Source: Escherichia coli (GTDB lineage: Bacteria; Pseudomonadota; Gammaproteobacteria; Enterobacterales; Enterobacteriaceae). Taken from it: a stretch of 64,000 nucleotides of DNA. This document shows positions 34,699-34,825 of the stretch, piece by piece (the first letter of the stretch is position 1; every line of letters starts with the position of its first letter). The position numbers were made by a program, and so were the translations under genes. Location of the stretch: assembly GCF_030384885.1 (NCBI RefSeq), contig NZ_CP128613.1; one strand, given 5' to 3'. The notes beneath the pieces were generated by a model. That model saw only the letters and a list, made by a program, of their open reading frames with translations, searched no databases and was not told where the DNA came from.

Positions 34699-34825
34699 AG
34701 GGGCTTCATCCGAATTGCGCCATTGTTGCAATGGCGGTTTTTATTGTTTTTCACGACAGTAACCGCACCTACACTGTCATGACATTGCTCGCCCCTATGT
34801 GTAACAAATAACCACACTGTGAATG

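Follow-up and report, generated by a model that had tools for sequence, protein, structure and literature searches.

The nrfA-acs Intergenic Region

The window, i.e., the whole stretch of 64,000 nucleotides of Escherichia coli DNA analyzed here, encodes nrfA on the minus strand (ATG at 34698-34696) and acs on the plus strand (ATG at 35091). The nrfA-acs intergenic region was matched in 5,413 of 5,426 complete genomes by a 501-bp query around the site under study. From position -393 to +90 around the nrfA ATG the window shows no differences to E. coli K-12 MG1655, so that the K-12 literature is directly applicable to this locus.

At 34718-34736 the plus strand reads CGCCATTG-TTG-CAATGGCG, which corresponds to a perfect stem of 8 bp with a loop of 3 nt. 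The nrfA-sense (minus-strand) RNA of this element, CGCCAUUG-CAA-CAAUGGCG, is referred to as hairpin 2 in the following. In a context of 31 nt it has a minimum free energy (MFE) of -10.6 kcal/mol (z = -3.8), and an equally good fold was obtained in one of 200 shuffles. No second copy of the inverted repeat was found within the window. Perfect 8-bp stems with a loop of 3-8 nt accounted for 42 matches (approximately 26 loci) in the window compared with 7.2 ± 2.9 in Markov-1 simulations. An 8-bp hairpin by itself is not improbable, and taken alone it makes a weak case for hairpin 2. What lifts the element beyond chance is the fact that its structure is kept in orthologous leaders, as described below. 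An in-frame TTG at 34731 (minus strand), which lies inside the hairpin, was given as nrfA start in a mechanically generated ORF list and was discarded, since the alignments of orthologs and the RefSeq annotation begin at the ATG at 34698.

Transcription Start and Organization of the nrfA Leader

The transcription start site (TSS) of the nrf promoter, pnrf, was deduced from the numbering of Godfrey et al. (2017; PMC5434802), in which the third base of nrfA codon 3 (AGG) is +102. The A of the ATG is consequently +94 and the TSS corresponds to position 34791 of the window. Independently, Wang et al. (2015; PMC4666370) took the region from -93 to +24 of nrfA as the 5′ UTR plus eight codons (24 nt). 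With the TSS at 34791 and the ATG at 34698, hairpin 2 spans +56..+74 of a 93-nt leader. A preceding sequence-only reading had described a stem-loop at 34718-34736, with a perfect stem of 8 bp and three nucleotides in the loop, about 20-40 nt upstream of the nrfA start and between the promoter and the ribosome binding site (RBS). This description holds: the hairpin occupies nt -38..-20 counted from the nrfA ATG, with the TSS at 34791 on one side and the Shine-Dalgarno (SD) sequence GGAUG (34711-34707) on the other. A TSS mapped 3′ of the hairpin, which the same reading regarded as fatal to its proposal, was checked as well, and the published TSS at 34791 places the hairpin inside the transcript. 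It overlooked that the leader contains two conserved hairpins, of which hairpin 2 is the second, and that hairpin and T-run look like a terminator on the opposite strand. The following features were assigned to the promoter and the leader:

34826..34839, minus strand: FNR site TTGATTAAAGACAA, centred at -41.5 (from the sequence; the geometry fits the TSS; assignment from the pnrf literature summarized in PMC5434802)
34791, minus strand: pnrf transcription start, +1, a C (numbering in Godfrey et al., 2017, and construct in Wang et al., 2015; K-12-identical here)
34777..34790, minus strand: 5′-terminal single-stranded segment, +2..+15, GAGCAAUGUCAUGA (complementary to RyhB nt 34-48; near-invariant across genera)
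34751..34782, minus strand: hairpin 1, +10..+41, 11 bp (UCAUGACAGUG / UUACUGUCGUGA) (fold, inverted repeat and covariation)
34737..34751, minus strand: A-rich single-stranded linker, +41..+55, AAAAACAAUAAAAAC (five A-R-N triplets in a row; the plus strand is the T-run GTTTTTATTGTTTTT)
34718..34736, minus strand: hairpin 2, +56..+74, CGCCAUUG-CAA-CAAUGGCG (sequence, fold, pair probabilities of 0.85-0.98 in the full leader, RNAalifold and pair counts)
34707..34711, minus strand: Shine-Dalgarno / GGA motif GGAUG, +81..+85 (6 nt past the base of hairpin 2)
34696..34698, minus strand: nrfA start codon, +94..+96 (ORF, K-12 annotation, orthologs aligning from residue 1)
34689..34691, minus strand: GGA motif in codons 3-4, +101..+103 (G at +102 mutated, p+102A, by Godfrey et al.; PMC5434802)

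The sequence TGnTACACA is located at -15..-7 relative to the pnrf TSS at 34791. NsrR presumably binds upstream at pnrf. The sites of the factors FNR, NarL/NarP, IHF and Fis lie in the promoter region, whereby the Fis site overlaps the -10 element (PMC5434802).

The K-12 annotation contains a further small gene in this region. The gene ytcB (b4821), encoding a small protein of 18 amino acids (MHLQLIKDNIHSVVICYT), is annotated at 34795-34851 on the minus strand and thus lies over pnrf at -60..-4, where it covers the FNR site and the -10 element. Its expression needs a transcript of the nrfA strand begun upstream of pnrf, and such a transcript would run through the leader.

The linker at +41..+55 is composed of five consecutive A-R-N triplets, (ARN)5, which is rare in local shuffles (P = 0.002). 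With a probability of being unpaired of 0.89, it shows the pattern of at least 3-4 consecutive single-stranded A-R-N triplets that characterizes sites for the distal face of Hfq. Four to five triplets are present in most orthologs of the Enterobacteriaceae, and beyond this family the tract is not conserved. The (ARN)n phasing is missing in Pectobacterium, Providencia and S. arizonae, though hairpin 2 stays there, so that an ARN site is no universal requirement for the hairpin to fulfil its role.

Directly 3′ of hairpin 2 the sequence AAUYUGGAYGA is almost invariant in the orthologs. This segment (34707-34714, minus strand, +78..+85) comprises the SD sequence and is also similar to the CsrA consensus CAGGA(U/A/C)G. 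Its GGA is 20 nt apart from the GGA mutated by Godfrey et al., and the two motifs lie on either side of the AUG, at a distance that a CsrA dimer could accommodate. At the other end of the leader, two tiny overlapping upstream ORFs are found at 34769-34785 on the minus strand (+7..+23), namely AUG-UCA-UGA (+7..+15) and AUG-ACA-GUG-UAG (+12..+23). Their common string ATGTCATGA is kept in most orthologs, although this conservation could be due to nothing more than the RyhB-like seed and the stem of hairpin 1.

Conservation and Covariation of the Leader Hairpins

For the comparative analysis a set of 80 nrfA loci with one genome per species was used. In a de novo hairpin search, almost every one of the approximately 50 loci from Enterobacterales showed a stem-loop that ends 17-23 nt before the ATG. 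The loci concerned comprise nearly all Enterobacteriaceae and moreover Pectobacterium, Symbiopectobacterium, Atlantibacter, Providencia and genomes labeled as Serratia. The distance between stem-loop and ATG is 19 nt in almost all Enterobacteriaceae. Unrelated stem sequences were found at the same place, like CCGCC-AGCA-GGCGG in Pectobacterium, CCGC-ACAGAC-GCGG in Atlantibacter and additionally GGCCGCC-AGCG-GGUGGCU.

Based on 22 aligned leaders of Enterobacteriaceae, RNAalifold predicted both hairpins without guidance, together with a possible lower stem of 3 bp (AGA/UCU), which comprises just two A-U pairs in E. coli. Pairing in helix 2 amounts to 97.7% within these 22 close species. The covariance model built from the same alignment recovered the leader from 55 loci, each time where it was expected, and the sole other match was located elsewhere in the window at chance level (E = 0.76). 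Among 51 distinct sequences, six of the eight pairs of helix 2 showed changes on both sides, most of which split a few deep clades and hence represent few independent events, and 89.6% of the cells were paired. For both helices together the proportion of paired cells was 90.6% compared with 26-59% when the partner columns were slid, in an alignment that is fitted to the structure by the covariance model and contains register errors in distant taxa. The observed covariation measures of the whole structure were reached by none of 500 shuffles of the 51 sequences. Hairpin 1 covaries in the same orthologs as hairpin 2, with GC/GU/AU and AU/GC/GU pairs. Hairpin 2 accordingly shows both features of a cis-acting 5′ UTR element, as it lies inside the transcript before the AUG and its pairing is kept with compensatory or wobble changes. 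We consider it highly probable, from the sequence comparison, that hairpin 2 is a selected RNA structure on the nrfA-sense strand.

The chance-level match of the covariance model, at 23421-23497 on the plus strand, consists of a GC-rich hairpin, GCCGCGUGAU-GGCU-GUCACGCGG, followed by UAUUU and resembles an ordinary terminator-like hairpin. A scan against Rfam yielded no family at the gathering threshold; it gave only MicA with 20.4 bits compared with a required 41 (E = 2) and an irrelevant lncRNA match.

Strand of Selection

The substitutions in the stem allow the two strands to be distinguished. In the well-aligned group, helix 2 contains 21 cells with a G·U or U·G pair on the sense strand compared with two cells with A·C, both of which are located at the loop-closing pair; the mismatch counts of distant taxa were left out of this comparison because of their register errors. 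Counted from the per-species list, at least 12 of the G·U events in helix 2 are independent. One position illustrates a stepwise change from C-G via U·G (E. albertii and Escherichia sp.) to U-A (E. whittamii). The hairpin of the antisense strand is weaker in many species, e.g., with -3.0 kcal/mol compared with -8.3 kcal/mol on the sense strand, and in six loci (L007, L013, L017, L020, L030, and L031) the antisense MFE drops from roughly -8 kcal/mol to values of -1.6 to -4.8 kcal/mol. As each sense G·U is a C·A mismatch on the plus strand, these data favor a structure of the mRNA over a plus-strand terminator.

A terminator is nevertheless what the plus strand looks like at first sight. Hairpin 2 has the sequence pattern of an intrinsic terminator, a GC-rich stem-loop followed by a U-tract, and was called by a plus-strand consensus scan with eight pairs, five of them G-C, then GTTTTTAT, the tail being given as GTTTTTATTG. 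The A-rich tract, i.e., the plus-strand T-run, abuts the hairpin in most orthologs, and the weak MicA match (20 bits, gathering threshold 41, E = 2) is sRNA-like and lies on the plus strand. Hairpin and GTTTTTATTGTTTTT could in this case end an antisense transcript begun within the 5′ end of nrfA, either as a cis-antisense RNA over the nrfA RBS or as a barrier shielding the acs promoters from antisense read-through. The orthologs do not maintain the plus-strand hairpin, however, as the changes in the stem give G·U pairs on the nrfA-sense strand (21 vs. 2), and the plus strand carries no gene upstream. A search of both strands between 34000 and 35600 yielded no promoter-like site. Among the entries listed from the Term-seq study of Adams (2021) no 3′ end occurs at K-12 position 42877xx, and the listed SMRT-Cappable-seq entries (Yan, 2018) contain nothing at this place, in both cases for cultures other than anaerobic ones with nitrite. 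Shuffled sequences furthermore yield as many terminator-like sites as the window (two found, 1.9 expected). We regard a terminator as quite unlikely, mainly because of the asymmetry of G·U and A·C cells, the missing promoter and the absence of a 3′ end among the entries listed. An even less probable reading, which we hardly credit, takes the element as a DNA-level palindrome, such as an operator for a dimeric protein downstream of pnrf, or as a chance inverted repeat. It is perfect (8-3-8), and approximately seven such repeats are expected per 64 kb, but the orthologs keep the pairing instead of the sequence and allow strand-asymmetric G·U pairs, which is the signature of an RNA helix. The known factor sites at pnrf lie in the promoter region outside the transcribed leader, and conservation at a fixed position in approximately 50 loci excludes a chance repeat.

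Some further observations concern transcripts around the 5′ end of nrfA. The sub-threshold MicA match covers 34667-34741 on the plus strand, antisense to the nrfA RBS and with its 3′ limit in the hairpin, and is not significant. Just upstream of it a very weak promoter-like pair, GTGAAA-N17-TAAGCT, is present; evidence for a transcript was looked for and none was found. On the minus strand a 3′ end is listed at about 34629 (K-12 4287833 +, nrfA codon 24) with a ratio of 2.89 in a table of Adams et al. (2021), apparently from Rho-dependence (bicyclomycin) data. It is located in the loop of an imperfect inverted repeat of 14 nt (34610-34623 / 34660-34673). If the table is indeed to be read as Rho dependence, this early 3′ end points to read-in transcripts that are poorly translated and terminate prematurely in aerobic cultures.

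Predicted Folding and Accessibility of the Ribosome Binding Site

The leader was folded from +1 to +130 by partition function as wild type and in arm-flip, compensatory and deletion variants. In the full leader hairpin 2 forms with P ≥ 0.94, and the probabilities of its single pairs range from 0.85 to 0.98. The probabilities of being unpaired are 0.89 for the A-rich tract, 0.67 for the SD sequence and 0.95 for the AUG. The opening cost of the region +76..+106 stays at 4.5-4.9 kcal/mol, irrespective of whether either arm is flipped, both arms are flipped or the hairpin is deleted.

According to these predictions hairpin 2 is an autonomous static module and no switch that masks the RBS. The sequence-only reading had proposed that the hairpin could modulate translation, and the simplest form of this proposal, occlusion of the RBS, is not borne out: the stem comprises neither SD nor AUG, and the arm flips do not alter the opening energy calculated for the initiation region. 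Sequestration of the SD, a switch and a riboswitch-like behavior were all rejected, since the SD begins 6 nt past a stem that forms with P ≥ 0.94 and the opening energy is unmoved by the mutants. A long-range GGGGC/GCCCC pairing turned out to be an artefact of a fold begun 4 nt upstream of the true TSS.

RyhB and CsrA Act on the Leader

The region from -93 to +24 of nrfA is sufficient for repression by RyhB at the translational level (PMC4666370). The effect of RyhB on nrfA was seen in ribosome footprints (Ribo-seq) without a change at the RNA level (RNA-seq); anaerobically, nrfABCDEF RNA is lowered by RyhB. CsrA represses translational fusions of nrfA through the GGA motif at +101..+103, as probed with the substitution p+102A made to relieve the repression (PMC5434802). 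In a csrA mutant the ribosome footprints of nrfA are increased. Additional GGA motifs occur in the leader, and CsrA dimers can bridge sites up to 63 nt apart (PMC5434802). In Salmonella, sequences downstream of +10 repress more than CsrA accounts for, and the role of the long conserved nrfA leader was called unclear by Godfrey et al. (2017; PMC5434802).

In an accessibility-corrected scan the best partner of RyhB (nt 34-48) was the segment +2..+15 with -10.7 kcal/mol, followed by the next best with -3.0 kcal/mol. Within this segment the 11-mer AGCAAUGUCAU (nrfA +3..+13) is identical to the start-codon region of sodB. We infer that +2..+15 of nrfA is a candidate RyhB site, approximately 80 nt upstream of the AUG. 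Cofolding of the whole molecules, RyhB and leader, gave a ddG of -11.6, which is not exceptional, as it was matched by 22 of 200 shuffles. Both approaches, cofolding compared with shuffles and the accessibility-corrected scan, replaced a whole-leader duplex prediction whose duplexes were unrealistically long. A pairing of RyhB with the 3′ arm of hairpin 2 (CAAUGG) was rejected, since opening of the hairpin costs 8.4 kcal/mol and the total is just -1.4 kcal/mol.

Possible Function of Hairpin 2

The leader is thus laid out as a single-stranded 5′ end of 9 nt with complementarity to RyhB, hairpin 1, the (ARN)5 tract, hairpin 2, a spacer of 6 nt, the SD/GGA motif and the AUG, behind which a second GGA follows. 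Our best overall explanation, which we hold to be about evenly balanced between right and wrong, is that hairpin 2 is a selected sense-strand stem-loop of the leader that would act as a static scaffold or clamp. Hairpin 2 may fix the spacing and geometry of the initiation region, and may keep this region and the A-rich tract unpaired. With 19 nt folded away, the A-rich tract, a candidate site for the distal face of Hfq or for S1, would come to lie within approximately 7 nt of the SD. In this arrangement, ribosome binding could be the target of the known post-transcriptional repressors of nrfA, CsrA and RyhB together with Hfq. The hairpin may also shield the leader from nucleases or slow its decay. 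The specific role as scaffold is drawn from geometry and is offered tentatively, as a possibility rather than an expectation; juxtaposition of the tract and the SD, as well as any link of the hairpin to Hfq, RyhB or CsrA, would follow from this layout. A more elaborate version, which we consider unlikely, would be a long-range repression with several inputs, in which RyhB pairs at +2..+15, Hfq occupies (ARN)5 and hairpin 2 serves as a hinge placing Hfq on the SD/GGA shared with CsrA. If such a device existed, iron limitation and carbon status would both gate ribosome entry approximately 80 nt from the sRNA site.

The scaffold has to be weighed against two other roles of a sense-strand hairpin. 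It may be a passive stabilizer or insulator without any link to a regulator, whose stable fold stops GC-rich mispairing and slows attack of RNase E or exonucleases on a long AU-rich leader. The structure is kept in spite of sequence drift in the loop and in much of the stem, hairpin 2 is autonomous and leaves the RBS untouched, and the rest of the leader is AU-rich and single-stranded (P unpaired of the A tract 0.89), all of which would suit such a role, as would an analogy to the 5′ UTR of ompA, which is said to contain two hairpins. Disruption of the hairpin in silico, on the other hand, yields no mispairs that occlude the RBS, so that an insulator would have no predicted thermodynamic benefit; stabilizing hairpins act near the 5′ end, whereas this one is internal (+56), and the fixed spacing to the SD, with 19 nt up to the ATG throughout almost all Enterobacteriaceae, suggests a positional role. 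We therefore see the passive stabilizer as a somewhat doubtful candidate, and the sequence data fit it and the scaffold alike. Alternatively, the hairpin could present or position a second contact for CsrA, with a dimer bridging from this upstream site to the SD/GGA, as in glgC and pgaA. This proposal draws on the control of nrfA by CsrA, on the extra GGA motifs of the leader together with bridging by dimers over up to 63 nt (PMC5434802), on the GGAUG located 6 nt 3′ of hairpin 2 and on the equivalent loop of Providencia, AUGGGA, which includes a GGA. The loops of E. coli and all close relatives (CAA, CAGA, AACA, and others) are without GGA and not conserved, and the two GGA motifs around the AUG are already dimer-compatible without the hairpin, which makes a CsrA contact at hairpin 2 rather improbable.

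A description of a hairpin in the nrfA leader was not found in our literature search, and the words hairpin and stem-loop are absent from the main paper on the pnrf leader (PMC5434802). The promoter of nrfA is a model for control by FNR, NarL/NarP, IHF and Fis, and the 93-nt leader of the gene is a known target of CsrA and RyhB. Hairpin 2 is a modest new detail of the leader of this well-studied operon, whose control by CsrA and RyhB was already known, and no new principle. The new map of the leader, in which two covarying hairpins are combined with an (ARN)5 tract and a candidate sodB-like RyhB seed, aids in working out how enteric bacteria couple the detoxification of nitrite and NO to their iron and carbon status.

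Comparison with Known Systems

A Rho-independent terminator shares with the plus strand of hairpin 2 the GC-rich 8-bp stem, the short loop and an adjacent T-rich run of 15 nt, and differs in that selection acts on the other strand and no transcription unit appears to end here, with no 3′ end reported in the data searched. Leaders regulated by CsrA, like those of glgC and pgaA, are comparable to nrfA with respect to repression via GGA motifs at or near the RBS. Their high-affinity sites show the GGA in a loop, whereas the loop of hairpin 2 in E. coli is without GGA and the motifs, at +82..+84 and +101..+103, are not part of the hairpin.

The 5′ UTR of ompA (Emory/Belasco; Vytvytska et al.) reportedly consists of two stem-loops with AU-rich single strands between them and Hfq adjoining the RBS. 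Like nrfA, it would represent a long leader composed of hairpin 1, a single-stranded AU-rich tract, hairpin 2 and a single-stranded RBS, with static hairpins, an unmasked SD and an A/U-rich site of the Hfq type near the RBS, which in nrfA is a candidate. Unlike in nrfA, the stabilizing hairpin of ompA is located within a few nucleotides of the 5′ end, and there is no sequence homology. A 5′-terminal stabilizer is a stem-loop approximately 2-4 nt from the 5′ end, whereas the hairpins of nrfA begin at +10 (hairpin 1) and +56 (hairpin 2).

With sodB, nrfA shares repression by RyhB and the 11-mer AGCAAUGUCAU. In sodB the 11-mer holds the start codon and pairing blocks initiation directly, whereas the copy in nrfA lies approximately 80 nt upstream with hairpin 2 in between. 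In the case of sdhC and Spot 42 (Desnoyers & Masse 2012), the sRNA is reported to pair far upstream and to recruit Hfq to an A/U-rich site at the RBS. By analogy, this may serve as a precedent for a distant sRNA site and an A-rich Hfq site that repress translation without decay of the mRNA. Judged from these likenesses, the overall layout of the nrfA leader appears closest to the ompA 5′ UTR, and its putative sRNA logic seems closest to sodB and sdhC-Spot 42.
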